A stretch of 64,000 bases of DNA from the NCBI GenBank assembly GCA_018818165.1, contig JAHISP010000014.1, positions 11,875-75,874 on the forward strand, given 5' to 3'. The notes below the pieces were generated by a model. The model worked only from the letters and a program-made list of their open reading frames with translations, ran no database searches and was not told the DNA's origin. The stretch's first letter is position 1, and each line of letters starts with the position of its first letter. Source of the DNA: Bacteroidota bacterium. GTDB lineage: Bacteria > Bacteroidota > Ignavibacteria > Ignavibacteriales > Melioribacteraceae. The translations under genes were made by a program, and so were the position numbers. Below, in pieces: positions 32,889-64,000 of this stretch.

Positions 32889-33917
32889 ATGCACGAACAT
32901 TCATCAAATATATTATTTAACTCGCTTTCAATAACCAGTTTTATTTTTGTAATGATGCTCTTAATTGAGTATGTAAACGTAATTACAAAGGGAAACTGGC
33001 AGAACAAAATTTCAAAAAGTAAATATGGTCAGTATTTACTTGGAGTGTTTTTGGGTGTAATTCCAGGCTGTTTAGGCTCTTACACAATTGTTTCGCTATA
33101 TGCTCACAGAGTTGTTGGGTTTGGGGCTTTGGTTGCTACTATGATAGCTACAAGCGGCGATGAAGCATTTATTATGCTATCATTATTCCCCCAAAAAGCG
33201 ATATTACTTTTTGCAATAATTGGTATTGTGGGCTTTTTTTCTGGAATTGTTACCGACTATTTCACAAAAAAGTTTAATATAAACTTCCAATTACACGAGC
33301 ACAAATTTGAAGTTCACGAAGATGAGGCATGTCCTTGTTTCTCAATTAAAGAAATAAAACTGCATTTGCAGAATATCAGTTTTCCTCGCGCATTATTAAT
33401 TGGATTATTATTAATTTTAGGCGGCATTCAATTGCACAATGTTATTGAAAACTGGGATTGGGATTGGATAAATATTACTCTTTTAACTTCTAATTTATTT
33501 GCTTTGTTTGTAGTAATAACAGTTCCAAATCACTTTTTGGAAAAACATCTTTGGGAACATGTTCTAAAAAAACATCTGTTAAAAATATTTTTATGGACTT
33601 TTGGCACATTATTGGCAATTCATTTTGTAACATCTTTTCTTGATATCAACCAATGGATAGAAACTAATTTGTGGGTTGTTCTAATTATTGCTGTTTTGGT
33701 TGGAATTCTTCCAGAATCGGGTCCGCATTTAATTTTTGTAACATTATTTGCCAGTGGAACTATTCCGTTTTCAATTTTAATTGCAAATTCAATAGTTCAG
33801 GATGGTCACGGAACAATTCCACTATTGGCTTTATCCAAAAAAAGCTTTATTTATTTGAAAATAATAAATTTAGCAATTGGATTTGCTGTTGGCGCTTTTA
33901 GTTTATTGCTCTTTTAA
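32889..33917 (+). CDS. Polytopic membrane protein (putative transporter, family uncertain)
   Basis: About 9-10 hydrophobic segments with a central loop containing HEHKFEVHEDEACPC (candidate metal ligands). Divergent from the TetR gene. Confidence 0.6.
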   Translation: MHEHSSNILFNSLSITSFIFVMMLLIEYVNVITKGNWQNKISKSKYGQYLLGVFLGVIPGCLGSYTIVSLYAHRVVGFGALVATMIATSGDEAFIMLSLFPQKAILLFAIIGIVGFFSGIVTDYFTKKFNINFQLHEHKFEVHEDEACPCFSIKEIKLHLQNISFPRALLIGLLLILGGIQLHNVIENWDWDWINITLLTSNLFALFVVITVPNHFLEKHLWEHVLKKHLLKIFLWTFGTLLAIHFVTSFLDINQWIETNLWVVLIIAVLVGILPESGPHLIFVTLFASGTIPFSILIANSIVQDGHGTIPLLALSKKSFIYLKIINLAIGFAVGAFSLLLF

Positions 33918-34585
33918 TGTCCTTTAATTCCAAAACTTAAAAAGTGGTTAATTTGCTTGCTTGCAAAATATAACTCCATAACTTTTGGCAATAAGTTTTT
34001 GGAAGTAAATATTTTGGAATCCAACGGCTTAAGATAGTAAAACTGCTTGTTTGCAATTAATGGCTCAATTTTGGCAATTTCATTAAATTCTTTTGGAATT
34101 CGCTTGTTTTTTTCGCCAAGTAGATTTCCAAAATGCTTTTTAAAACTTGCGTTATTAATTATGGAATGAAATTCATCCAAATTATCAACAATAAACTCAC
34201 GCAGATTTTGTAATTGTGTGGTTTCTAAAAAATGTGCACCGCCATAAAAATTTAATCCATTGTTACTTAATTCCAAATAAATGCCTGGCGTTGTAAAATC
34301 CTTTCTCCCACCTTCCGAAATTATTGCCGAAACATAGGTTTTATATGGCATTTTATCTTTGCTAAACCGCACATCTTTGTAAATTCTGAAAATTGCTTCT
34401 TTGGGCGTTAAAGTAATGTTTTCGTCATCTTCTTTTATGTTGTTTAACAAAACCTCAATAAAATTTTCAAAAGGTTGTTTTACCGTTTTGTTAAACACAT
34501 CTTTATTAATATTAAACCACTCGCGATTATTGTTTTTTTCAAGATTTGTGAAAAACTCTATAAATTGATTCGTAAAGAATTGCAT
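33914..34585 (-). CDS. DUF2461 (TIGR02453) family protein
   Basis: The N-terminal signature FFTNLEKNNNREWFNINKDVF and the later RIYKDVRFSKDK match this family's pattern. Confidence 0.75.
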   Translation of the reverse strand: MQFFTNQFIEFFTNLEKNNNREWFNINKDVFNKTVKQPFENFIEVLLNNIKEDDENITLTPKEAIFRIYKDVRFSKDKMPYKTYVSAIISEGGRKDFTTPGIYLELSNNGLNFYGGAHFLETTQLQNLREFIVDNLDEFHSIINNASFKKHFGNLLGEKNKRIPKEFNEIAKIEPLIANKQFYYLKPLDSKIFTSKNLLPKVMELYFASKQINHFLSFGIKGH

Positions 34586-34695
34586 AATTTCTCCAAAGTT
34601 ATTTTTTACTTTTATTGTGCTAAATTTAGTAAAAAAATAGAAAATTTAAACTCTTAAATTGCTCTATCTGGTTTCTAGAGTTTTTTAACATATTG

Positions 34696-34898
34696 TTTGC
34701 ATAAAAAGATTATAATAACTAATTTTTGCAAAGATATTTAGTAAATGAGGTTAATGAATTACTCTGCTTTACTTACCCCAAATTATTAACCGAAAATTGT
34801 GTGAATAAACAAAAAGGTGGAACGTTATAATGCAAAAATTTGCTTGATAACATTCCAAATTGCAACATTTTGTTGCGGATTAATATATAGTTAGTTGC
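34696..34898 (+). repeat. Left-boundary partial/rearranged junction unit
   Basis: 34696-34728 (TTTGCATAAAAAGATTATAATAACTAATTTTTG) and about 34732-34760 match the 3' part of the full units. An AACGTTATAA remnant lies at 34821-34830. The unit ends in G|TTAGTTGC (34890-34898). Confidence 0.6.
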
Positions 34899-34912
34899 TT
34901 AAAGGAGTTTCT

Positions 34913-35368
34913 ATGAAAAAAAATGTAATCATTTTTACTTTCCTTTTAACTGGAATTGTTTTTTGTCAGTCTTCAATTACTGTTAATAAATTAAGCACAT
35001 TTCCTGAGGATTATATTAATAAGGAAATATCATTTAAAGATATTTGGTGGTATCCAACCTTGGCTAGCTATAAAAACGATATTGATGGAAAAACATATTA
35101 TCAAGTAATGTTACAAATTAGTGCCTCAAATGAAGAAAAACATTTTGGAATGGGAGGCATGGATAAAATTATGGGAGTTGTAAACAAAAACATTGCTATG
35201 GAATTAACGAATGATAATAAGAATGGCTATGTTTATAATTATTTAGGGGATGTTTTTGGCAAAGTGATTAAGACGAAAACATTTGGAAGCGAATACTTTT
35301 TTGTAATTAAAAAAATCATTCATCATTCCCCTGAAGGAATCATAATAAAAACTTATAATAGTAAATGA
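34913..35368 (+). CDS. Cassette 1a: small secreted protein, unknown function
   Basis: ATG at 34913 preceded by AAAGGAG. Signal peptide MKKNVIIFTFLLTGIVFCQ. The stop overlaps the start of the next ORF (ATGA). Confidence 0.7.
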   Translation: MKKNVIIFTFLLTGIVFCQSSITVNKLSTFPEDYINKEISFKDIWWYPTLASYKNDIDGKTYYQVMLQISASNEEKHFGMGGMDKIMGVVNKNIAMELTNDNKNGYVYNYLGDVFGKVIKTKTFGSEYFFVIKKIIHHSPEGIIIKTYNSK

Positions 35369-35967
35369 TGATGGATATTTTTAGAAAAATCCCACATAAT
35401 TTATATCGAGGTGATTCAGACTCTCGAAACGAGAGAAAGCTAAAACAAACAATTAATCAAAACTGTCTTCTAACAAATTTGAGTAACTCTGGTAGTGGCA
35501 GAGAAATTTTCAGTAATCCACTTAAAAATTTAGTCTCAAAACACATTTCTCCTGGCTGGAGCAAAACCCATTTCTTATCATTTTCGGAAAGCAAAAAAAT
35601 TAGTATAAAGTATGGTAGTAGACAGAACAATAATTGTATTTTAACAAATTTGGACGACTGGGATTTCGTTGTTATAGTTTTTTCTAAGGAATTTATAATT
35701 AAAGAAACAATTAGAGAAACTGATGAGGGATGTTTCATTTTGGAATTTTGTACTGCCTCATTAGAATTCCATCCAGTTTATAAATTACTTGCTATAAATG
35801 TTTACATCTATCTTTGTTCTAAAAATGCGGATAATAATCTCAAAGAAAAAGCAAAGTTAGATAAGGAGTGGTTATTACTTCCCTTAAATCGTTTTGAGAA
35901 TGAATATACAAGCAAATTGGATATGTGTTGTATTTCTTCAGTAGAAAAATATAAATCCATATACTAA
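35365..35967 (+). CDS. Cassette 1b: 200-aa cytoplasmic protein, unknown function (weak R-S-E ADP-ribosyltransferase-like pattern)
   Basis: Translationally coupled to cassette 1a. Contains LYRGD, HFLSFSES and later acidic residues (DKEWLLLP). The family assignment is speculative. Confidence 0.6.
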   Translation: MMMDIFRKIPHNLYRGDSDSRNERKLKQTINQNCLLTNLSNSGSGREIFSNPLKNLVSKHISPGWSKTHFLSFSESKKISIKYGSRQNNNCILTNLDDWDFVVIVFSKEFIIKETIRETDEGCFILEFCTASLEFHPVYKLLAINVYIYLCSKNADNNLKEKAKLDKEWLLLPLNRFENEYTSKLDMCCISSVEKYKSIY

Positions 35968-35982
35968 GTTTTAATAAATGGC

Positions 35983-36379
35983 GCAACTAACGTTATAAGG
36001 ATTGATACCGAACGGAGCTGAGGTATAATCCGGTGTTGAGCTAAGCCGCAGCTACTACTTGTAATTTGCTTAAATGTTTTTAGGGGTGGGGTTATTTTAT
36101 TTTACTACAATTTTACTTTTGCTATGAGTTGTTTTGAATTACAAAAACCTTCGAGGTTATTGCCAAATTAGAAATTGTTTGTGAAGATACAACCTTTATA
36201 AATTAAAAAACCTCGAAGGTTTGGGCGTATTGCAAAAAAATAATAATTTGCTAAAAAAGATTATAATAACTAATTTTTGTCCACAAAGGTTGATATGTAT
36301 TTAAGTGGGATGAAATGAATAAATGTGGATTTATGTTTTTTTGCTTATTTACGGATGAAATTCTTTAAAGTTATACCTA
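35983..36379 (+). repeat. Junction unit U1 (full, ~0.4 kb): module A + module B
   Basis: Starts GCAACTAAC|GTTATAAGGATTGATACC 16 nt after the stop codon and ends ...AATTCTTTAAAG|TTATACCTA. From 36076 on it looks ~95% identical by eye to U2. Confidence 0.85.
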
Positions 36380-36389
36380 GTAAAAAATA

Positions 36390-37325
36390 ATGGAGACAAA
36401 ATTGAAAGTTGAAGCGAATAATGCACTATTCATCAAGTTAGGTTCAAAAGGTCGTTGGCAAAACGAATGTATTGAGAAAAATATAATAAAATTGGGTTTT
36501 GTTAGCTCTCTTGAAATACATAAAAAAAGTTTAAATAGAGAGTGGGATAGTGTAAAAAAATATTGGCTTAAAGAAAAAAAGAGAAAAGCAGAAGCAACAA
36601 AAATTGCTAATCAAATTAAATATTTTTATGAATGTGATGAAGATACACTTTGGATAACTTTTATAGATAAAAAACTTTATTGGTGTTTTGCAGAAAGTGG
36701 AGTTACGATCTTAAATGATGGAAACAGAATAAGAAAAGTTAAAGGGAAATGGAGTTGTAAAGATATTGAAGGTAATGTATTATTTGACGAAAATATTGGT
36801 GGAGCTATTGCACAAGTCCAAAGGTTTCAAGGGACAATTTGTAAGGTTTCTGCAAAAGAACAGTTATTGGACATAATTAATCTTAATAAATCAAATGATT
36901 TAAGAAATGCTGAAAATATTTTTGCTAATCTAAAGGGTAGTATTGTACCATTAATTAAAAATCTACATTGGAAAGATTTTGAATTACTTGTTGATTTAAT
37001 TTTCACGTCTTCTGGTTGGAGGAGAATTTCTGTTGTTGGGAAAGCTGAAAAGGACGTTGATCTAGAGTTGATGCAAAATGTAACCGAGGAAAAAGCATTT
37101 GTTCAAATAAAATCTAGATCAACAATGAAAGAATTTAATGACTACATTCAGATATATAAAAGAGAGAAGCAGTATAATAAAATGTATTTTGTAGTAAATA
37201 ATCTTTCAAAAGATTTTAGTGGGTGGAAAGATACAAATGAAATTAAATTACTCGATAATGAAAAGCTTTCACTATTAGTTCTTAATTCTGGATTAGTTAA
37301 TTGGTTATTTAAAAAATCAAAATAG
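36390..37325 (+). CDS. Cassette 2: Mrr-type (PD-(D/E)xK) restriction-endonuclease-like domain with an unknown N-terminal domain
   Basis: The C-terminal FELLVDLIFTSSGWRRISVVGKAEKDVDLEL...AFVQIKSRS fits the Mrr_cat pattern (D...E/QxK). The ~190 N-terminal aa are not recognised. Confidence 0.65.
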   Translation: METKLKVEANNALFIKLGSKGRWQNECIEKNIIKLGFVSSLEIHKKSLNREWDSVKKYWLKEKKRKAEATKIANQIKYFYECDEDTLWITFIDKKLYWCFAESGVTILNDGNRIRKVKGKWSCKDIEGNVLFDENIGGAIAQVQRFQGTICKVSAKEQLLDIINLNKSNDLRNAENIFANLKGSIVPLIKNLHWKDFELLVDLIFTSSGWRRISVVGKAEKDVDLELMQNVTEEKAFVQIKSRSTMKEFNDYIQIYKREKQYNKMYFVVNNLSKDFSGWKDTNEIKLLDNEKLSLLVLNSGLVNWLFKKSK

Positions 37326-37762
37326 GTATAACGTTATAAGGATTGATACCGAACCCCACAAAAAGAACGGGGTAAACTCCGCTGAGGTATATCACTTTGT
37401 GAGAGCTAAGCCGCAGCTACGACTTGTAATTTGCTTTTATGTTTTTTGGGGTAGGGTTATTTTATTTTACTACAATTTTACTTTTGCTATGAGTTGTTTT
37501 GAATTACAAAAACCTTCGAGGTTATTGCCAAATAAGAAATTGTTTATGAAGACACAACTTTTATAAATTAAAAACCTCGAAGGTTTGGGCGTATTGTAAA
37601 AAAAATAATAATTTGCTAAAAAATATTATAATAACTAATTTTTGTCCACAAATGTTGATAGTATTTAATTGGGATGAAATGAATGAATATGGTTTTTTTT
37701 GCTCATTTCCAGACCTGTCCTCCAGTTTTTATGGTGGATAAAATTCTTTAAAGTTAGCCCAT
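37323..37762 (+). repeat. Junction unit U2 (full, ~0.44 kb): module A + module B
   Basis: Starts TAGGTATAAC|GTTATAAGGATTGATACC, where the TAG is the upstream stop codon. Ends ...AATTCTTTAAAG|TTAGCCCAT. Relative to U1 it has a 24-nt insertion in module A and a ~30-nt insertion near the 3' end. Confidence 0.85.
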
Positions 37763-37784
37763 ATAATCAAAAAGGAGAACGCAC

Positions 37785-38231
37785 ATGAACTATGCGCGAA
37801 TGTTTCACAAGATAGGATCGTGGTCTTACGTGCTTCTTGGCATTGGCCATATCGCAACCCATTTGTTTTCACCTAAAACGCCTGAACAAGAGCAAATGAT
37901 TTTGCGCATGAAAGATTTTGCCATCGACATGCCAGGACCAGATTCAACGCTTTTTTTGTTCCATGAAGGCTTCAGCTTAATGATGGGTGTATTACTAATT
38001 AGTTATGGGATAGCAAATATTCTTTTCCTTTCATCGGATAGCCTCGACTCATTGACAAACAAACATATTGCTATGCTAAACATAATTGTCTCTTTAGTGG
38101 CAATGATTTTATCTGCAGTTTATTTTTTTATTGTACCAATTGCGTTCACCACTGCGTCACTCATAGCATTCGGGTTGGCGTTTGGTCTAACGCGTCGTTC
38201 CACCAGACGCACAAAAGCAGCGCGCCAGTGA
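37785..38231 (+). CDS. Cassette 3: 148-aa four-TM membrane protein, visibly GC-richer than its surroundings
   Basis: A strong SD (AAAGGAG) lies 8 nt upstream. Hydrophobic segments and a basic tail RRSTRRTKAARQ. Composition looks roughly 40+% GC by eye, against about one-third elsewhere. Confidence 0.7.
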   Translation: MNYARMFHKIGSWSYVLLGIGHIATHLFSPKTPEQEQMILRMKDFAIDMPGPDSTLFLFHEGFSLMMGVLLISYGIANILFLSSDSLDSLTNKHIAMLNIIVSLVAMILSAVYFFIVPIAFTTASLIAFGLAFGLTRRSTRRTKAARQ

Positions 38232-38318
38232 ACCTAAACGTTATGTACAAATACTAATTAATATTTTTTATTGTCTATATCTGCAAAACGTCTATTTTGA
38301 AAAGGAAGTTTAATCTTT

Positions 38319-39284
38319 ATGTTAAAAAATCTATATCCATTATATCCTTATGGTAAACTTGATGTTCAGTCAGAAGCAATTCTTCAAGAGATAGCAAAAT
38401 CGAATGGAAAACCCCTTGCTTCTATGACACCCAAAGAAGCTAGGGAATGTTTTTTGGAAAATTCATGGCTTGGAGCGCCTGACAAAAGCATCCAAATAAA
38501 AAATATTTATATCGATAATTCCGATAGTAATATTCCATTACGTATTTATACGCCAGAAGGGGAAGCGCCATTCCCAATACTTCTATTTTTTCATGGTGGA
38601 GGATTTGTGTTAGGCACTTTAGACGAGTTTGATTCATTTTGCACATTTCTGGCTAGTGGAGCTAACTGCATAGTAGTTTCTGTTGGTTATCGTTTGGCTC
38701 CGGAGAACAAACATCCAGCCGCTGTTGAAGATGCTCAAACTGCACTTAATTGGATTGCTGTCAACGCTTCTAAAATTCAAGGTGATGTTTCTCGAATTGC
38801 AGTTGCCGGAGATAGTGCCGGTGCTAATTTAGCTGCGGTAGCTTCTTTAATTGCACGAGACAAATCATTTCCAACATTACTTTGCCAAATACTCATTTGT
38901 CCTTGGCTTAATCTTTCGTCAACAGAGACAAATTCATATAAATATTTCGGAAATGGATTATGGCTCTCAACTACCAATATTCATTGGTATCGTAATCACT
39001 ATTTAAAAAACGATGATCAAGCAAAAACATATTTAGCCTCACCGTTGCTAGCAAAAAAACTAAGTGGATTGCCTTTCACGTTAATTATTACTGCCGAATA
39101 TGATGTATTGAGAGACGAAGGAGAATCATATGCAAATCGTTTGGAAGAAGAATCCGTCGTTGTGAAATACACAAATTATAAGGGAATGCTTCATGATTTT
39201 GTTATGTTACCGGGAATATTTAACAAGGCAAAAGAAGCCATAAATGAAATATGTTCAACGTTAAGAATGATTTTTAAAAATTAA
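38319..39284 (+). CDS. Cassette 4: alpha/beta-hydrolase esterase/lipase, hormone-sensitive-lipase (family IV) type
   Basis: Oxyanion motif FFHGGGF, nucleophile elbow GDSAGAN, acid DVLRDEG and His in MLHDF. Confidence 0.9.
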   Translation: MLKNLYPLYPYGKLDVQSEAILQEIAKSNGKPLASMTPKEARECFLENSWLGAPDKSIQIKNIYIDNSDSNIPLRIYTPEGEAPFPILLFFHGGGFVLGTLDEFDSFCTFLASGANCIVVSVGYRLAPENKHPAAVEDAQTALNWIAVNASKIQGDVSRIAVAGDSAGANLAAVASLIARDKSFPTLLCQILICPWLNLSSTETNSYKYFGNGLWLSTTNIHWYRNHYLKNDDQAKTYLASPLLAKKLSGLPFTLIITAEYDVLRDEGESYANRLEEESVVVKYTNYKGMLHDFVMLPGIFNKAKEAINEICSTLRMIFKN

Positions 39285-39329
39285 AGAGCGTTTCTCATTA
39301 CTAATTTCAATTTGGAAATTGTACTTAAT

Positions 39330-39432
39330 TTTATAAGGATTGATACCGAATCCCACAAAAAGAACGGGGTAAACTCTGCTGAGGTATATCACTTTGTACG
39401 AGCTAAGCCGCAACCACTACTTGTAATTTGCT
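39330..39432 (+). repeat. Junction element copy 3 (module A only)
   Basis: TTTATAAGGATTGATACCGAATCCCACAAAAAGAACGGGGTAAACTCTGCTGAGGTATATCAC...GAGCTAAGCCGCAACCACTACTTGTAATTTGCT. Aligns with 37333-37435 with a few substitutions. Module B is absent. Confidence 0.85.
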
Positions 39433-39483
39433 ATGGCGTTTTATATGTTGCAGGGCAAACGCAACGTAAATCATAAAAAATAA

Positions 39484-39801
39484 TTAGGAAGAAATGGTTC
39501 TTGCAATTTCTTTATTTGATGTTCCAAGAGCCAATAACGACCTAATAATTAAATCTATTGATACCGACGGATCGCCAGTTTCTAATTTTGCAACTCTTGA
39601 TTGACTTGATTTAATCATTCTCGCAAATTCTATTTGTGTTAATTTTCGGTCAATTCGCAATTTTCTTAAATTGGCACTCAACTTTAGTTTCAAATCAATA
39701 TATGATTCTTCTTCTTCGGTTAGTCCAAGAAAATCTTTTACTGAACCAATTTTCCAACCTTTTTTCTCAAGTATTTCTTGTTTTTCACTAGTCATTGTCA
39801 T
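39484..39801 (-). CDS. higA: HigA-like antitoxin (XRE-family HTH)
   Basis: HTH LTQIEFARMIKSSQSRVAKLE. Lies downstream of, and overlaps, the toxin gene (the reversed TA order typical of higBA). Confidence 0.75.
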   Translation of the reverse strand: MTMTSEKQEILEKKGWKIGSVKDFLGLTEEEESYIDLKLKLSANLRKLRIDRKLTQIEFARMIKSSQSRVAKLETGDPSVSIDLIIRSLLALGTSNKEIARTISS

Positions 39802-40120
39802 ATTCCTTAATTCTTTTTTTGCATACATCAATTACGGCTTTAGGTGTTTGTTGTGTTTTCTTGTTAAAAACATCAAGAATTACAATTGCATCACTATCAA
39901 TTCTATAAATAATTCGCCAAGTAACATTTTCATCATTTATTCTAAGTTCATGGCAATTTTTACCAATACTTGGTATTGGTCTTGAATGAGGCATACTCAA
40001 CTTTTCTTCCATTTGAAGCAACCTGAAAAGAAATCCAGCTTCAATTCTTGCCGAAGCAGAAAAGGGGGGAGTTTTAATTTCTCCATACAGCCAAATAAGA
40101 GGTTTATCAGGTTTTTTCAT
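39788..40120 (-). CDS. higB: HigB/Gp49-like RelE-superfamily toxin
   Basis: Start taken at the ATG at 40120 (MKKPDKPLIW). The pattern ...SIGKNCHELRINDENVTWRIIYRIDSDAIVILDVFNKKTQQTPK matches Gp49/HigB-type toxins. Confidence 0.7.
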   Translation of the reverse strand: MKKPDKPLIWLYGEIKTPPFSASARIEAGFLFRLLQMEEKLSMPHSRPIPSIGKNCHELRINDENVTWRIIYRIDSDAIVILDVFNKKTQQTPKAVIDVCKKRIKEYDND

Positions 40121-40131
40121 ATTATAAATAT

Positions 40132-40147
40132 ATGTCAAATATGACAT
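40132..40147. promoter_or_regulatory. Palindromic candidate operator in the TA promoter
   Basis: ATGTCA-AATA-TGACAT, a perfect 6-bp inverted repeat 12 nt upstream of the toxin ATG. Confidence 0.4.
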
Positions 40148-40234
40148 AATTTCAACAAAATAAACCAAAAGGTAGAGATAAAAGTTTACAAAATGGGCTT
40201 ATTGAAGACTCGATTAAACAGTCAAGGCAAGAAA

Positions 40235-40295
40235 ACATAACATTTTAATTAAAACTAAAAAAACAAAAAATTTAAGTTCTAAAATTCCGTTATGT
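40235..40295. repeat. 61-nt attC-like imperfect hairpin at the right edge of the array
   Basis: ACATAAC-ATTTTA ... TAAAAT-TCC-GTTATGT. The 7-nt outer boxes (..AAC / GTT..) are perfectly complementary, the inner 6-nt boxes pair with a 3-nt bulge, and the centre is A-rich. Confidence 0.45.
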
Positions 40296-40333
40296 TATAT
40301 ATTTTTGTTGGTTAATAATAAAGAATAATTAAG

Positions 40334-41644
40334 ATGACTAAAAACATGAATGAATTTTCCGCACACGAAATTAAAATTATAAAAAATGAATTTGCTAAAC
40401 ACAGCAATGAAGAATATGACCCTGAACAACTTACAAAAACCGAAAAGTTTTTTGATAGAATTATTAAAAACAATAACGCAATTAAATTACTTATTAATGT
40501 TAATACAAGTAAAATAGTTAATAGCAACCAATATGCACAAAGGTTTTATGGCTATAGTGAAAGGGAACTGCATAGTAAAGAGATTTATGAAATAAATGTT
40601 TTAAAAGAAGATGAAGTGAGGGAAGAATATGTTCGTTCAAAAGAATTAGGTAGAGATTATTTTGAGAGTAAACAGAAAAATGCTAAAGGTGAAATAAAAT
40701 CTGTAATGATTCGTTCAACCTCGTTATCAATAAAAAATGATGACTTTATTTATTTAATAATTCATGAATTACCTGAAAAAAATGAAGCTAAAGCTGAGGA
40801 ACAGAAGAAGGAAGTTGCTCCAGTATTTTCGCTATTTACAGCAAAGGAAGATAACTTACTTGATAACGATTTGAACCTTTTAGAGCAAAACGCAAAAGAT
40901 TTAGTTTATTTATCCAACAGACTTGCTGAATCGGAAGAAAAACTTAAACAGTTAAATGCAAGCAAAGATAGATTCTTTTCTATAATTTCTCACGATTTGA
41001 AAAATAGTTTTTTTTCGGTAATGGGATTAAGTAAAATTTTAGCTGACCCTGAAAATAAAGATTCAATTGAAAAAAAATTAGAAACTGCGCAGATGCTAAA
41101 TAATAGTTCTAAAAAATTATATTCATTTTTGGAAAATCTTTTAAGTTGGGCAAGAATTCAGCGAGGAGAGATGGAATATGATCCTGGTGAATATGAATTA
41201 TACGAAATAGCCGCTGAAGTAGCTTATCTTTACAGAACTAAAGCAGAACAAAATGGTGTTGAATTAATTAATAAAGTTGGCAAAGATAATCTTGTTTTTT
41301 GTGACCCAAATATGTTAAAGACAATACTTAGAAATCTAGTATCAAACGCAATTAATTTCACTAAAAAGAATGGCTCAGTTACTATTGATGTAAAAAAAAG
41401 TGATGAAGATACTTATATTTTTGTTAGTGACACTGGAATTGGGATTAGTGGTGAAAATATTGACAAGCTTTTGCGTATTGATAAGAAACATATTGAACCA
41501 GGTGTAAATGGCGAAAAAGGTACAGGTTTGGGCCTAATTCTTTGTAAAGAGTTTGTAGAAAAGCACAATGGCAAAATATGGATTGAAAGCCAAGAAGGAA
41601 AGGGCAGCAAATTTATTTTTACTCTTCCAAATAAAACGGCTTAA
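40334..41644 (+). CDS. PAS-domain sensor histidine kinase (cytoplasmic)
   Basis: PAS-like N-terminus, coiled coil, H-box SHDLKNSF, N-box LVSNAINFT, G-boxes DTGIGI / GTGLGLILC. Confidence 0.9.
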   Translation: MTKNMNEFSAHEIKIIKNEFAKHSNEEYDPEQLTKTEKFFDRIIKNNNAIKLLINVNTSKIVNSNQYAQRFYGYSERELHSKEIYEINVLKEDEVREEYVRSKELGRDYFESKQKNAKGEIKSVMIRSTSLSIKNDDFIYLIIHELPEKNEAKAEEQKKEVAPVFSLFTAKEDNLLDNDLNLLEQNAKDLVYLSNRLAESEEKLKQLNASKDRFFSIISHDLKNSFFSVMGLSKILADPENKDSIEKKLETAQMLNNSSKKLYSFLENLLSWARIQRGEMEYDPGEYELYEIAAEVAYLYRTKAEQNGVELINKVGKDNLVFCDPNMLKTILRNLVSNAINFTKKNGSVTIDVKKSDEDTYIFVSDTGIGISGENIDKLLRIDKKHIEPGVNGEKGTGLGLILCKEFVEKHNGKIWIESQEGKGSKFIFTLPNKTA

Positions 41645-59727: not shown

Positions 59728-60207
59728 ATGGATTTAATAATAGTTGACCAAAATATAAATTACACAAAATCGTTACGCGAGTTTTGTCTGGAGTTTGCCA
59801 GCTTCAAAAATGTAATTATTTACAGAAATTTGGAGGAATTGCTCGATGCCTACCTTCCTAAAAAAGGAATAATTCTATTTGAATCCAACAAAGAAAATTT
59901 GGAAAATCTTGATAAAATCAAAAACATTGGCTCAAATTTGACTCTTGTTGCATTATCCGATAGTTCAAATTTTGAACAAGAGACCGAGCTAATTTTAAAA
60001 GGAGCATCGTCCATTATTTCAAAGGCGCAGAAACTTGAATCAATACTTCAAGAAATTAAAATGATTGTAAAGGGACAAAGAATTTTGCCTCAAAACGCAT
60101 TCGAGACTTTGCGAATTAGCGAAAAAGCGAAGATAAACTCAATTCAAACACCTATAAAATCTGAAAATACATTTTCAAAATTTTTAAAAAGCATAATAAA
60201 AATATAA
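59728..60207 (+). CDS. Stand-alone receiver-like protein with an atypical acceptor site
   Basis: The ATG at 59728 (MDLIIVDQN) opens a receiver-like layout. Where the phospho-acceptor Asp is expected the sequence reads GIILFESNKE. The conserved S (LVALSD) and K (ISKA) are present, with no output domain. Confidence 0.55.
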   Translation: MDLIIVDQNINYTKSLREFCLEFASFKNVIIYRNLEELLDAYLPKKGIILFESNKENLENLDKIKNIGSNLTLVALSDSSNFEQETELILKGASSIISKAQKLESILQEIKMIVKGQRILPQNAFETLRISEKAKINSIQTPIKSENTFSKFLKSIIKI

Positions 60208-60224
60208 TTATTTGGAGTTAAAAA

Positions 60225-63200
60225 TGAAAAAACAAATGCCGTTATTATACGTCATTCTTTTTGTTGGAATGATTTTAAGCAGTATGCTAATTGCACAAAC
60301 TGCAACAGTACCTGCGGGAACTGGAACAGTTGGCGACCCTTACCAAATTACAAGTGTTAATAACTTGTATTGGATGAGCCAAAATACAAACCTTATTGGA
60401 AAATATTACACACAAATGAACGATATTGATGCTTCTTCAACTACAAATTGGGATGACCCTGTTGGTGGAACAAAAGAAGGTTTTGTGCCAATTGGTACTT
60501 CGAGTGCTCCTTTCCGTGGTTATTTTGACGGGCAAAATTACACAATAAATGGATTGTACATTAATAGAAGTGGCACGAACGCCATTGGTTTATTTGGTTA
60601 CACTAATTCGAGCAGCTATTATATAAAAAATGTTAAACTAACCACAGTCAACATAAAAGGAAATAACTCTGTAGGCGGTATCATAGGAAGCAATGCATAC
60701 ACTCCTATTGAAAATTGTTCGGTCACAGGCGATATATATGGATATGGAAATTCTGTAGGTGGAGTTGCCGGGGAAAATTATAATGCTACAATAACAAGTT
60801 GTTATTCAACTGCTGATGTTACAGGAGTGGAATCAACTGGTGGATTAGTTGGGTTAAATGCTCAAACTTCTGGAAACACAGCACTTATTGAAAAATCATA
60901 CTATGCTGGAGTAACTGTTGATGGAAAAGGAAACTTTGTTGGCGGTTTAGTTGGAAAGAATAATGATGGCACTATCACTGAATGTTTTTCCACTGGTAAT
61001 GTTCTAAGCATTGCAACTTATGTAGCTGGATTAGCAGGTGTAAATAATGGAAGTGATTCACATATCAGCAATAGTTATTCCAAAGTAAGCTTGTATAGAT
61101 ATGGTGGTGGTGCATTAACCACATACTATTATGGTGCATTTGTTGGCAGAAATTATAGCGGAACAATTGAAAATTGTTATTCAACAGGTTCAATTACTTT
61201 TGATGATGGAAATGGAACAACCCCAACAAATGCAGGGTTTGTCGGAGATTCATATAATGGGATAGAAACAAACAACTTTTGGGATAATGATGTTTCCAAC
61301 CAATCAACAGCAACTGGTGCAACAAGCGCAACTACTGCTGAAATGAAAAACTCGGCAACATTTATTTCTGGTGGTTGGGATTTTGTAACTGAAACAACTA
61401 ACGGCTTAAATAATTATTGGGATGATGATGTAACCGAAGCAATAAATGGTGGATATATGCCACTTGCTTGGCAAGCGGGAACAGACGGCATTTTGAACGG
61501 AACACCAAGTGGAACCGGAACAAGCGGTGACCCATATTTAATTGCAACTCTCGATAATTTAATTTGGATTACGCAAAACACAGATAGATGGGAAGAATAT
61601 TTTAAGCAAACAGCAAATATTGATGCTTCTTCAACAGTAACCTTAAATAGTGGGGCTGGGCTTGTGCCAATTGGCAACACAACAACACAATTCACTGGTT
61701 TTTACGACGGACAAAATTATTCTATTTCTAATCTCACAATTAATCGTCCAGCAACACAATATGTTGGTTTGTTCGGTTATACAAGTGGTAGTGCTGAAAT
61801 ATCAGACTTAAATCTACTTGCTGTTTCAATTACTGGCGATGATTATGTTGGCGGTTTGGTTGGTTATGCTTATGGTAATTTAATTACAAATTGTTCAGTT
61901 GCAGGAAGTGTTACAGGAGATGATTATACAGGCGGATTGATAGGGGCAAATTCAGATAATACTGTTACAAATTCATATTCAACAGCAAATGTAACTGGTG
62001 GCGATTATGTTGGTGGCTTAATTGGTTGGGAATTTAGTTCGACCATTCGAGCAAATTATGCAACTGGTAGTGTTTCCTCTTCTTCCAATGATGCAGGCGG
62101 ATTAATTGGATACGCTGAGGCAAGCACAATCTCAAATTGCTATTCAAAAGGTAATGTTACAAGAAGTATAGGAACTTCAACAAATTTTGGTGCTTTTATC
62201 GGGCAGGTAAGTAGTGATGGTGGAGCATCTTCAATTTCTCATTCATATTCTATTGGTTCGGTTTATTATACTGGAACAACTGCTCCAACAGACAAAGGCT
62301 TTGTGGGATATGATAACACCACAGGTGGTGCTAATACTTACACAAACAATTTGTGGGATAATGATGCTTCAAATCAATCAACAGCAACCGGTGCTACAAG
62401 TAAAACAACAGTTGAGATGAAAGACTACAGAACGTACACAACTGCTGGTTGGGATTTTAACTACGAAACAACAAACGGCTCAAATAGTTATTGGGATGAT
62501 GACCAACTTGGAACCGTAAATAGTTTTTACCCAATTCTATATTGGCAAGCCGGTGCAAATGATGAAACTTATGGACAACCAAGTTTGGGTGATGGAACCG
62601 AGGGAAATCCATATCAAATTTCAACTTTGAATAATCTTTATTGGCTTTCGAAAAATACAAGTGTTTGGTCTAAATATTTTGTACAAACACAAACAATTGA
62701 TGCTTCTTCAACATCAACTTGGCATAATGGATTAGGTTTTGAGCCAATTGGACAAGCACCAAAATATTTTGAAGGAAATTGGACTGGAAATTTTGATGAA
62801 GTTTATATAATAAACGCACTTTCAATAAACAGACCAAATGAAAATAATGTGGGCTTTTTTGGTAGAACAAATTATGCAACTATAAAATATTTAGAAATTA
62901 GTCATTCAGATATTTCTGGTTATGAGTATGTTGGGTCTTTAGTTGGAAACGCGGCGGACATGACAAATATTCAATATTGTTTTTCCACCGATGGAACGGT
63001 TAGCGGATATCTTGCAACGGGAGGGTTAATAGGAGCTAATTATCATGTGAATATTTTTAACTCAAAAAATAGTTCAAATGTAACAGGCACTGGGCGTGAA
63101 GCTGGCGGTTTGGTTGGATATTTTGCGGCAGGCTCAACAAGTTATAAAATATCAGAATGTAGTAATACTGGTTCTGTTTCAGGAACTTCCTATGTAGGTG

Positions 63201-64000
63201 GTTTGGCTGGACGAAATGGTGGCTCAGCAATTGAAAAATCTTATTCAACTGGAAATGTTTCTGGAAGTAGTAGCCTTGTTGGAGGTTTTGTTGGAGATAA
63301 CAACTCTGCAATAACCAATTGTTATTCAAAGGGAAATGTTACTCGCGGTTCTGGAGCAACTGACGAAAGATATGGTAGCTTTGCTGGAATAGCTCGTAAT
63401 GGCTCTAATTTTAGTTATTGCTACTCAACAGGAAGTGTAATATATACAGACGCTACAAATCCAACAACCAAAGGCTTTGCAGGTTTAGATGAAGGTGGAA
63501 CTTTTACTGCAAACTTTTTTGATTCTGAAACATCATCGCAATCAACAGGAACAGGAGCAACTGCAAAAACCACTGCTTTAATGAAAACAAATTCAACATT
63601 TGTAGATGCTGGTTGGGATATAAATATTTGGAATATTGATGCAAGCTGGAATAGTGGTTATCCATACTTTGATTGGCAAAATTCTGGTGGAACAGCTTTG
63701 CCCGTTGAATTAACTTCATTTACTGCAAATTTAGTAGATGGAAAAGTTGAATTAAACTGGGAAACAGCAACAGAAGTAAATAATTACGGATTTGACGTAG
63801 AGACGTTGCGTGCAACGTCTGATGAATGGGAAACAATTGGTTTTGTACAAGGCAGTGGAAATAGCAATTCACCAAAAAATTATACTTTTGTTGATGAAAA
63901 TCCATCAACAGATTCAGCAGAATACAGATTGAAACAAATAGATACCGATGGTAATTATTCTTATTACTCAGAAACTGTAAAAGTTGCTGGATTTGGAATA
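60225..64000 (+). CDS. Giant secreted GLUG-motif repeat protein (3' end outside window; missing from the ORF track because it has no stop in the window)
   Basis: My own translation of frame 3 from the ATG at 60225. Signal peptide MKKQMPLLYVILFVGMILSSMLIAQ. Three ~360-400-aa modules, each starting G(D/N)PYxI(T/S)...L.W(I/M/L)(T/S)(Q/K)N and full of VGG(L/I)(V/I)G repeats. The last ~100 aa visible are an Ig/Fn3-like domain (LTSFTANLVDGKVELNWETATEVNNYGFDVE...YRLKQIDTDGNYSYY). All minus-strand track ORFs here are antisense artefacts. Confidence 0.85.

Follow-up and report, generated by a model that had tools for sequence, protein, structure and literature searches.

What kind of system has set a run of unrelated small genes between two core genes of an uncultured low-GC Bacteroidota/FCB bacterium, with the same sequence recurring behind three of their stop codons? 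In the 64-kb window, the whole stretch of DNA analysed here, the locus is bounded on the left by a DUF2461 gene (33914–34585, minus strand; Pfam PF09365, E 8e-54) and on the right by a PAS/HisKA/HATPase sensor kinase gene (40334–41644, plus strand; identified by Pfam), and the ORF layout between them is as first described from the sequence alone, with five unrelated gene sets. Cassette 1 (34913–35967, plus strand) encodes a 151-aa signal-peptide protein (34913–35368) whose gene overlaps a 200-aa ORF (35365–35967), and neither protein has a Pfam or PADLOC match. Cassette 2 (36390–37325, plus) codes for a 311-aa Mrr-type restriction endonuclease-like protein (Pfam Mrr_cat, E 3e-6) that weakly matches the PADLOC candidate defence family PDC-S02 (E 1e-7), cassette 3 (37785–38231, plus) for a membrane protein of 148 aa where the local GC content is raised (0.35–0.40 vs ~0.29), and cassette 4 (38319–39284, plus) for an alpha/beta-hydrolase (Abhydrolase_3) esterase (Pfam E 2e-69). 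The fifth set is an inverted HigBA-like toxin–antitoxin (TA) pair (39484–40123, minus; Pfam), consisting of an HTH_3 antitoxin (39484–39831) and a Gp49/HigB-like toxin (39788–40123); where this pair interrupts the window's copy of a repeat unit, the related species L001 and L013 have a single continuous unit (alignment A2).

The impression that no recombinase is in view extends to 68 kb of the parent contig: between a point 9 kb upstream of the window and window position ~59.2 kb, no Pfam match belongs to a family of integrases, recombinases or transposases, and the remaining 3.8 kb of the window is one ORF of >1267 aa that runs off its end. The locus resembles CALINs (clusters of attC sites that lack an integron integrase) and sedentary chromosomal integrons (Cury et al. 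2016, PMC4889954; IntegronFinder 2.0, PMC9024848) in its co-oriented, unrelated small cassettes between core genes, its TA modules, one of them inverted, the canonical attC at one junction with no intI nearby, the inverse-core and core motifs at junction edges, the similarity of junction repeats within a genome, and the presence of cassettes common to arrays. It departs from them in that one site in the window fits the attC model, whereas the CALIN definition requires at least two, that most junctions are 0.4-kb composites, and that these junctions carry promoter-like motifs, unlike the usual promoterless integron cassettes.

Cassette 3 keeps a canonical 62-nt attC (junction J4; 38185–38246, plus strand), with R'' GTCTAAC, R' GTTATGT, L boxes GTTC...GAAC, and extrahelical bases or bulges at the class-1 (canonical) positions; the site contains the final codons of the cassette. 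Model R1, a covariance model whose sole training set was 14 plasmid-borne attC sites of class-1 integrons (57–128 nt long), matches it over its full length at 29.5 bits (E 3.8e-5 in a 164-kb search and 1.4e-6 in a search of the region). This search, of the kind that the sequence-only reading had proposed, found nothing else significant in the 64-kb window, and a scan that is independent of loop length (PWM/pair score) gives the same site 45.5 vs ≤16 for the window background. Position 38237, previously taken for a short remnant of the repeat, is actually the 3' end of this attC and not a decayed unit copy. A 44%-identical homologue of cassette 3 lies inside a gammaproteobacterial array with four R1 matches of 21–38 bits, and another, 70% identical and from an organism of 48% GC, is accompanied by an attC that is homologous but decayed; cassette 3 is, judging by sequence comparison, mobile across phyla.

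The remaining junctions are built on the repeat. The 64 kb contain three exact copies of the 20-mer TTATAAGGATTGATACCGAA (35993, 37334 and 39331; 0.01 expected), which lie 22, 5 and 43 nt beyond a stop codon, within the ~45 nt given in the sequence-only reading, and GAGCTAAGCCGCARCYAC and ATTATAATAACTAATTTTTG have three copies each, confined to the array. A correction to that reading is that the bare 8-mer AACGTTAT does not exceed chance (seven matches vs 3.1 expected, with seven reached in 6 of 100 shuffles). Part A, a conserved module of ~100–117 nt that starts 5–43 nt past the three stop codons, consists of a bulged hairpin of 10 bp, to which further hairpins are optionally added. Full units occupy two junctions. 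J2 (35985–36389, plus) has an inverse-core-like AACTAAC (35985–35991), a short Part A lacking the 23-nt CCCC/GGGG hairpin (35988–36085), a Part B with a CCTTCGAGG/CCTCGAAGG hairpin (~36150–36225), a promoter-like motif (36247–36279) and a 3' module (36310–36369) that ends in the core GTTATAC (36370–36376). J3 (37326–37784, plus), which also has Part B, carries the inverse core GTATAAC (37326–37332) immediately 3' of the TAG stop, a Part A with the hairpin present and a 21-nt deletion of the 3' arm of helix P1 (37329–37445), a promoter-like motif (37612–37644) and the 3' module end GTTAGCC (37753–37759). The two had been judged by eye to be ~95% identical over 390–440 nt; the units are real, but they are 402 and 456 nt long, and their alignment has 58 gap columns and 400 ungapped ones, over which identity is 88%; 95% is reached only in a 172-nt core.

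The other junctions hold parts of a unit. J5 (39326–39442, plus) is a Part A copy only, with a degenerate inverse core CTTAAT, and is 89% identical to the J3 copy. At the array start, J1 (34586–34912, plus) is homologous to the full units only in their promoter piece, with a promoter-like motif at 34696–34728 and a core-like GGAAC↓GTTATAA at 34819–34829. The promoter-like motif, TTTG-N20-TAATTTTTG, is of Bacteroidota type, lies 111–185 nt upstream of the next ORF and is restricted to J1, J2 and J3. The 3' part of the last unit (40160–40333, plus) forms the upstream region of the kinase gene and is conserved in L001 and L013; it contains an inverted repeat, ACATAAC (40235–40241)...GTTATGT (40289–40295), with a bottom-strand fold of z −2.4 and a core that is mutated in L013, and R1 gives no significant score on it.

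Related low-GC arrays from metagenomes place the same Part A modules beside attC-like sites of 185–277 nt and many TA cassettes. In the L183/L192 array, ~10 cassettes share one orientation, five TA pairs are present, and Part A occurs five times, in each case directly past a stop codon; L019, L017 and L212 are organised in the same way. The regular 185–277-nt sites are the top R1 matches of their loci; their ends pair specifically (dG −12.7 to −21 kcal/mol, z −2 to −4.9), and their R''-L'' halves are class-1-like at 22–25 bits. These sites are longer than the usual attC, which spans 57–141 bp, and are about equal to or above the default upper limit of IntegronFinder, 200 nt. In L212, a 53%-identical homologue of the cassette 2 Mrr gene is followed by the same TAG-GTATAAC and then by a regular 225-nt attC-like site, and since TAG-GTATAAC is common to the Mrr genes of L212 and the window, the xATAAC opening the units is a genuine inverse core.

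Could each 0.4-kb unit then be one giant attC that a lineage-specific integron integrase recombines, its R''-L'' start pairing with its L'-R' end in the folded bottom strand so as to enclose a terminal structure that is variable and very large? The units open with xATAAC past a stop codon and close with GTTAK where similarity stops (between loci, right after AAAGTTA(T/G)), the start and end of J2 aligned by eye agree at 18 of 24 positions, the lineage already has attC-like sites longer than the class-1 sites of the model, and the ends of one unit (L183 11500) pair with z −3.1. However, across seven units the end-to-end duplexes reach only −4.8 to −9.4 kcal/mol (z +0.3 to −3.1), well short of the regular sites, and unit ends pair with each other no better than with the 3' ends of other sites. 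Whole-unit folds leave the ends unclosed (z −1.6 and −0.6), the L183 3' module folds by itself into a 44-nt hairpin closed by a TAAC/GTTA pair of its own (z ~ −3.8), and R1 has no match on the units. We regard giant sites as decidedly unlikely, and the units are best read as composite junctions, not giant attC hairpins. Against the integron reading itself, R1 gives the Part A junctions no score, only one site in the window passes an attC model, and the compact attC proposed for the 5' half of Part A has a weak fold (z −0.1 to −1.9).

As a lineage-specific, highly similar repeat behind unrelated cassettes, the unit recalls the VCRs of the Vibrio cholerae superintegron. VCRs are single imperfect palindromes of ~120–130 nt, whereas the repeat here is a mosaic of 400–460 nt, in which a conserved 5' module is followed by a middle that varies and by 3' modules that are interchangeable, and its ends are unpaired. 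Most units have GTTA at each edge, conceivably a 4-bp target duplication, and the first 17 nt and last 17 nt form imperfect inverted repeats, as would suit a non-autonomous element (MITE-like or an attC-targeting derivative) that inserts at TAAC↓GTTA, mobilised in trans through a transposase or unknown recombinase; an IS1595-family transposase lies 14–18 nt from the unit in L001. That such an element built the junctions seems very improbable, because there is no Part A or unit copy outside the array in the 77-kb contig, and true database matches are all in arrays or at the orthologous locus. Moreover, Part A joins at least three unrelated right modules, whereas a MITE retains both ends, and the L001 IS1595 is bounded by 15-bp terminal inverted repeats of its own and stops before Part A. 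Matches in viral contigs are chance similarity in coding DNA, not unit copies.

Comparison of the interval across relatives, also suggested earlier, found other genes and just one unit at the orthologous locus of a related species, whose kinase gene has ~80–84% DNA identity; the kinase orthologues in L001 and L013 are at ~80%. A 1.9-kb block of the window (37395–39325) recurs in L183 at ~97% identity between other neighbour genes, the cassette 4 esterase travelling together with cassette 3. The left edge of this block is inside Part A and the right edge just before Part A, neither being at a G↓TT core, edges that suit homologous exchange between Part A copies more than they do clean integrase events. 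The array is the same in near-identical strains from five samples, which therefore give no evidence of recent activity.

The same edges would suit a variable hotspot that uses no integrase, where the units act as portable homology, transformation and homologous recombination swap the genes, and the attC is a fossil, a single site brought in with one gene. The model is the minimal mobile elements of Neisseria, in which different genes likewise lie between the same conserved flanks and exchange tracts end in repeats; those elements are not known to have attC-like sites, a rule of co-orientation or an enrichment in TA pairs. Part A is homogenised per genome (the window copies are all GGATTGATACC and the five L183 copies all GGATTCAT, followed by ACC or ACT in four of them and by GCC in the fifth), the identical 21-nt deletion is present in J3 and J5, and no integrase adjoins any of the four arrays inspected, so IntI dependence is putative. 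We nevertheless consider an integrase-free hotspot unlikely, as the related arrays interleave Part A junctions with many end-paired attC-like sites that have class-1-like halves, and their co-oriented, TA-rich cassettes resemble sedentary integrons. Cassette families also occur in arrays of distant phyla without Part A, and the post-stop inverse core is conserved between Mrr homologues with different junction types.

The integron or CALIN part of the sequence-only reading is thus supported, by the J4 attC and the gammaproteobacterial array around a cassette 3 homologue, by the related low-GC arrays with the same modules, attC-like sites and TA cassettes, and by the recurrence of the 1.9-kb block together with the different genes at the orthologous locus; its suggestion of giant attC sites is not. 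In an integron-type array, site-specific recombination at the cores (G↓TTA..) would have inserted the cassettes, presumably through an integrase that is encoded elsewhere in the genome or has been lost. The 0.4-kb unit would comprise four parts, the inverse-core xATAAC, Part A, a gene-less stretch with the promoter motif, and a 3' module ending at GTTAK, and may have a 5' end that derives from an attC, with a gene-less promoter cassette fused to it or following it and driving the next gene, the promoter being predicted from its motif. Gene-less promoter cassettes occur in Vibrio superintegrons (10.1101/2023.11.21.568050), and the ORF-less DNA here, like that of Vibrionaceae (Blanco et al., 10.1101/2023.11.21.568050 / PMC11014356), may supply promoters to cassettes far from Pc; unlike those cassettes, the putative promoter segment is always behind the same Part A, without a defined 5' core boundary.

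We infer that unit copies spread and were homogenised within a genome via recombination between copies, and that the inverted HigBA pair inside the last unit probably stabilises the array. Complete integrons are reported from Chlorobi, Ignavibacteriae and Bacteroidetes (PMC9024848). A separate system of cassette capture, conceivable because no recombinase could be located, is not required by these observations. We think it probable that this low-GC bacterium carries, between its DUF2461 and kinase genes, a chromosomal array of swappable integron-type gene cassettes with no integrase nearby (CALIN-like).

Between a minus-strand DUF2461 gene (33914-34585) and a gene for a PAS/HisKA/HATPase kinase (40334-41644) lie five gene sets, comprising a 151-aa protein with a signal peptide whose gene overlaps a 200-aa ORF, a 311-aa Mrr_cat nuclease with a weak PADLOC match to the candidate family PDC-S02, a 148-aa membrane protein, an Abhydrolase_3 esterase, and an inverted HTH_3/Gp49 (HigBA-like) pair; GC content is 0.35-0.40 across the membrane-protein and esterase stretch versus ~0.29. 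On balance, we think it probable that these genes form a cassette array of the integron type that lacks an integrase nearby, and that the 0.4-kb units at its junctions are lineage-specific composites, not giant attC sites.

The units are marked by a 20-mer, TTATAAGGATTGATACCGAA, with three occurrences in 64 kb where 0.01 would be expected, all 5-43 nt downstream of a stop codon; two further unit pieces are also found within the array only. The module that opens the units, Part A (the first 100-117 nt), is present at 35988-36085, 37329-37445, and 39326-39442, and the ~300 nt after it form Part B. The two complete units (402 and 456 nt) match at 88% of ungapped columns, rising to 95% within a 172-nt core. 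Their edges, xATAAC/GTTATAC and GTATAAC/GTTAGCC, combine an inverse core with a GTTRRRY-type core, fitting the consensus loosely. The bare 8-mer AACGTTAT, on which the sequence-only reading had based its short remnants of the unit, is no more frequent than expected by chance.

We looked for attC sites with a covariance model, R1, built from 14 plasmid class-1 integron sites with textbook R and L box pairs (aadA1, aadA2, aadB, ereA2, cmlA5, aac(6')-31, catB6, VIM-4, dfrA12, dfrA1, aac(6')-Il, GES-24, arr-2, and IMP-34). In a search space of 164 kb, consisting of the window and the comparison loci, R1 matches 38185-38246 (+) at 29.5 bits (E 3.8e-5), at full length and with both bulges at canonical positions; a search of the region with filters off recovers the same site at E 1.4e-6 and no other significant match. 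A scan combining a position weight matrix with pairing, and ignoring loop length, scores this site 45.5 versus at most 16 elsewhere in the window. It is also the only junction with the attC architecture R''(RYYYAAC)-spacer-L''...L'-spacer-R'(GTTRRRY) plus extrahelical bases, reading GTCTAAC-GCGTC-GTTC[C]ACCAG[A]CGC...GCGCCAGTGAAC-CTAAAC-GTTATGT, for which aadA1 serves as a comparison. What had been called a remnant at 38237 turns out, from R1 and the matrix scan, to be the 3′ end of this canonical attC, which overlaps the end of the membrane-protein gene. The orthologous site in L183, an array that shares this gene, scores 33.1 bits with R1, and the positive control, the gammaproteobacterial array L188, contains four R1 sites of 21-38 bits. 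CALINs are defined by at least two covariance-model attC sites on the same strand and <4 kb apart; with R1 as a surrogate model, there is one significant site in the window (38185-38246), and the other junctions go undetected.

Long, regular junction sites, of 185-277 nt, occur in other arrays: at 1655-1843 and 3778-3965 in L183, 3529-3713 in L017, 6521-6741 in L019 (analyzed in reverse-complement orientation), and 2740 and 6049-6273 in L212. Each starts with xxxTAAC at or on a stop codon and ends in GTTAKNN, and its two ends pair with one another (dG -12.7 to -21 kcal/mol, z -2 to -4.9) better than with the ends of other sites. The 5′ halves of some score 22-25 bits on the class-1 matrix. L212 6049-6273 and L017 3529-3713 are the best R1 matches, and weak ones, in a joint four-locus search, and L183 3778-3965, at 10.8 bits, ranks sixth in its locus; R1 scores at the relatives' junctions are weak generally (10.8-14.1 bits), being lowered by insertions of 130-165 nt. 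In the end-pairing test, seven Part A junctions (292-560 nt) give -4.8 to -9.4 kcal/mol (z +0.3 to -3.1), and foreign ends pair at least as well, so the inverted repeat that defines attC is absent from the units. Because their ends fail to pair, whole-unit DNA folds leave those ends open, and R1 with filters off finds no match above 6 bits on the 0.4-kb units, we consider giant attC-like sites, one of the options in the sequence-only reading, unlikely. Two other placements of a recombination site were also rejected. One was to read AAC|GTTATAAGG as the 3′ core of an attC located within the preceding ORF, which fails at the unit at 37326-37784 because no AAC occurs within 100 nt upstream (the nearest usable one is ~215 nt off, with no complementarity by eye) and at the unit at 35985-36389 because there is an adjacent GCAAC only; a Xer/dif-like site was discarded since its arms are not palindromic.

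An Mrr homologue in L212 (53% identical) ends TAG-GTATAAC, identical to the window, and is followed by a regular 225-nt attC-like site, which argues that the xATAAC opening the unit is a genuine inverse core belonging to the upstream cassette, with Part A putatively replacing the usual L''/loop part. Part A contains a 10-bp helix, GGATT(G/C)ATACC/GGTATAATCC, in which the bulged base is G or C depending on the copy; its loop includes an extra CCCC/GGGG hairpin in some copies, and in one copy an insertion opposite the bulge splits the 3′ arm. The helix is followed by GTTGAGC or GTTGGAC, both matching GTTRRRY, and this order suggests a compact attC of 57-81 nt in the 5′ half of Part A. The candidate (R''-P1-GTTGAGC) has an attractive layout, a weak fold (z -0.1 to -1.9), and no R1 score. 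Single-strand folds of Part A, as RNA or as either DNA strand, are no better than those of shuffled sequence, and searches of Rfam 15 returned zero matches at gathering score in the window, nothing for Part A at E ≤5, and no family for the richer Part A variants of L183.

Part A copies are homogenized within each genome, and a 21-nt deletion is common to the copies at 37329-37445 and 39326-39442. At the other end, similarity between units of different loci stops directly after AAAGTTA(T/G), as a core site would predict. The 3′ module of L183 alone forms a 44-nt hairpin closed by TAAC/GTTA (z ~-3.8) and that of L019 a 114-nt hairpin site (z -2.8); the counterparts in the two complete units of the window have diverged. 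At the start of the L183 array (L183 1-120, equivalent to L192 9600-9720), an (AATTTTT)n run precedes a palindrome, TCCGTTAGTTAACGGA, and a similar sequence, GTCCGTTAGCCAACTGACGGA, interrupts the loop of one 3′ module; this array start is a possible primary attachment site.

A motif of the form TTTG-N20-TAATTTTTG is found only at 34696, 36247, and 37612, in each case 111-185 nt ahead of the next ORF. The -33/-7 promoter consensus of Bacteroidetes is TTTG...TAnnTTTG, which the motif resembles, and we predict that it is a promoter. On our reading, the 5′ end of each unit would derive from an attC, and the remainder would be a gene-less segment that carries the promoter and finishes at a core site; gene-less promoter cassettes, like the segment proposed here, are also known in Vibrio superintegrons.

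Public collections were scanned with exact 19- and 20-mers, an approach that misses variants such as GGATTCATACC, which surfaced only via protein context. There was one true match in reference genomes (L001) along with two by chance, five true loci in metagenomes (L013, L023, L025, L017, and L019) along with nine by chance, and only chance matches in two scans of viral contigs. L001 is the orthologous locus of a related species, with ~84% DNA identity in the kinase gene and one unit upstream of it, and the genes preceding that unit are quite different ones, coding for PRC-barrel and BrkB-like proteins and an IS1595 transposase. The transposase belongs to a complete IS1595-family element (L001 2044-3041; DDE_Tnp_IS1595, E 1e-32) that is bounded by terminal inverted repeats of 15 bp, AACTGGGGTATTCAC, and sits 14-18 nt upstream of Part A; the idea that Part A is an end of this element was dismissed, as the element has 15-bp repeats of its own and stops before Part A. 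L013, L023, and L025 are from the same species as L001, and the HigBA pair of the window lies within a unit that is uninterrupted in L001 and L013. In L023 (1199-1483), a ribosomal protein S19 gene runs in frame into the C-terminal part of a GumN/TraB-like ORF, with the junction at a peptide common to both, GHLLGE; this is probably an assembly chimera. L017 and L019 are arrays of co-oriented small ORFs elsewhere on the chromosome, in which Part A, too, comes after a stop codon and the next ORF is preceded by a conserved 65-nt module.

A MITE- or REP-type dispersed repeat should have scattered copies with fixed paired ends, and we consider this explanation of the units very unlikely. Their copies are confined to the array within 77 kb, all true database matches of the exact 19- and 20-mers come from arrays or from the orthologous locus, and Part A is joined to at least three different 3′ modules.

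In five samples, near-identical strains share the array of the window and are therefore uninformative on turnover. Short-read contigs end at the repeated units; one Logan contig (L011, from SRR10598178) begins at window position 40247, 87 nt before the kinase start codon and inside the last junction, and this may mark a strain polymorphism in that sample. A further comparison is with L183/L192, a ~13-kb array of about 10 co-oriented cassettes, among them PemK, Phd/YoeB, RelB/Fic, and BrnT/A pairs, with five Part A copies, each directly after a stop codon, and a 97%-identical copy of the 148-aa protein. Window segment 37395-39325, comprising the 3′ half of Part A, Part B, the membrane-protein gene, its downstream site, and the esterase gene, recurs in L183 at ~97% identity with different neighbors. 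The left end of this block lies inside Part A and the right end just before the next Part A, which points to homologous exchange between Part A copies in addition to any site-specific events. This block among new neighbors and the different genes at L001 support the sequence-only description of an integron-like array.

Cassettes and cassette families also recur in other arrays and other phyla, as independently mobile cassettes should. A homologue of the 148-aa protein (44% identical) is in the gammaproteobacterial array L188, a Phd/YoeB cassette is common to L019 and L183 (77%), and a 173-aa cassette family of L183 is also in L197, the array of a 55%-GC organism. L188 (1-12201, from MAG NVWF01000047.1) is made up of co-oriented small ORFs with BrnT and VapBC pairs; L197 (10000-14800) has co-oriented small ORFs and toxin-antitoxin pairs, with junctions sharing TCACG(C/T)CTTGTTCTGTG, another repeat family. 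In a 48%-GC organism (L187 1-700), a homologue of the 148-aa protein (70% identical) adjoins purine-biosynthesis genes, with GCGTTAGCGG upstream and a decayed copy of the window's attC (38185-38246) downstream (CTAAG for CTAAC and GTCAGG for GTTAGG), and looks like a fossil cassette. In L212 (3748-5127), a 1.4-kb non-coding stretch has, by eye, about three copies of a ~330-nt repeat with CCCCGA..ATCGGGATGTGCCACTTGATAGAAAAG.

Pfam families for integrases, recombinases, or transposases are absent from the contig between 9 kb upstream of the window and ~59 kb within it, in keeping with the sequence-only statement that no recombinase was in view and with the absence of a nearby integron integrase that CALINs require. 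A single long ORF for a secreted protein fills the remainder of the window (60199-64000, +); it is >1267 aa, has a signal peptide, and continues past the window end; the contig also encodes proteins with a T9SS sorting domain. No integrase was found within ~10 kb around the L192 and L197 arrays or in 9.5 kb of L019. Complete integrons have been reported from Chlorobi, Ignavibacteriae, and Bacteroidetes (PMC9024848), and about half of CALINs are in genomes without an integrase (PMC4889954). We consider it unlikely that uncultured Bacteroidota/Ignavibacteria-like bacteria have a distinct cassette system whose recombination sites are Part A and its partner 3′ modules, these serving either as a new class of long multi-hairpin attC with a divergent IntI or as sites of a non-IntI recombinase that co-exists with classical integron cassettes and captures them. 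If either version were true, every cassette would be self-expressing, with the 0.4-kb unit acting as an integral "site plus promoter" module.

Integron biology is based almost entirely on Proteobacteria, with short attC sites and promoterless cassettes whose expression drops with distance from Pc. If the arrays described here are as they seem, sites of ~185-280 nt would cause default-setting searches to under-count cassettes across much of the bacterial tree, and with promoter-bearing gene-less modules interleaved, the Pc-distance rule would not apply. The arrays also carry candidate defense genes, such as the Mrr-like nuclease, and many toxin-antitoxin pairs.
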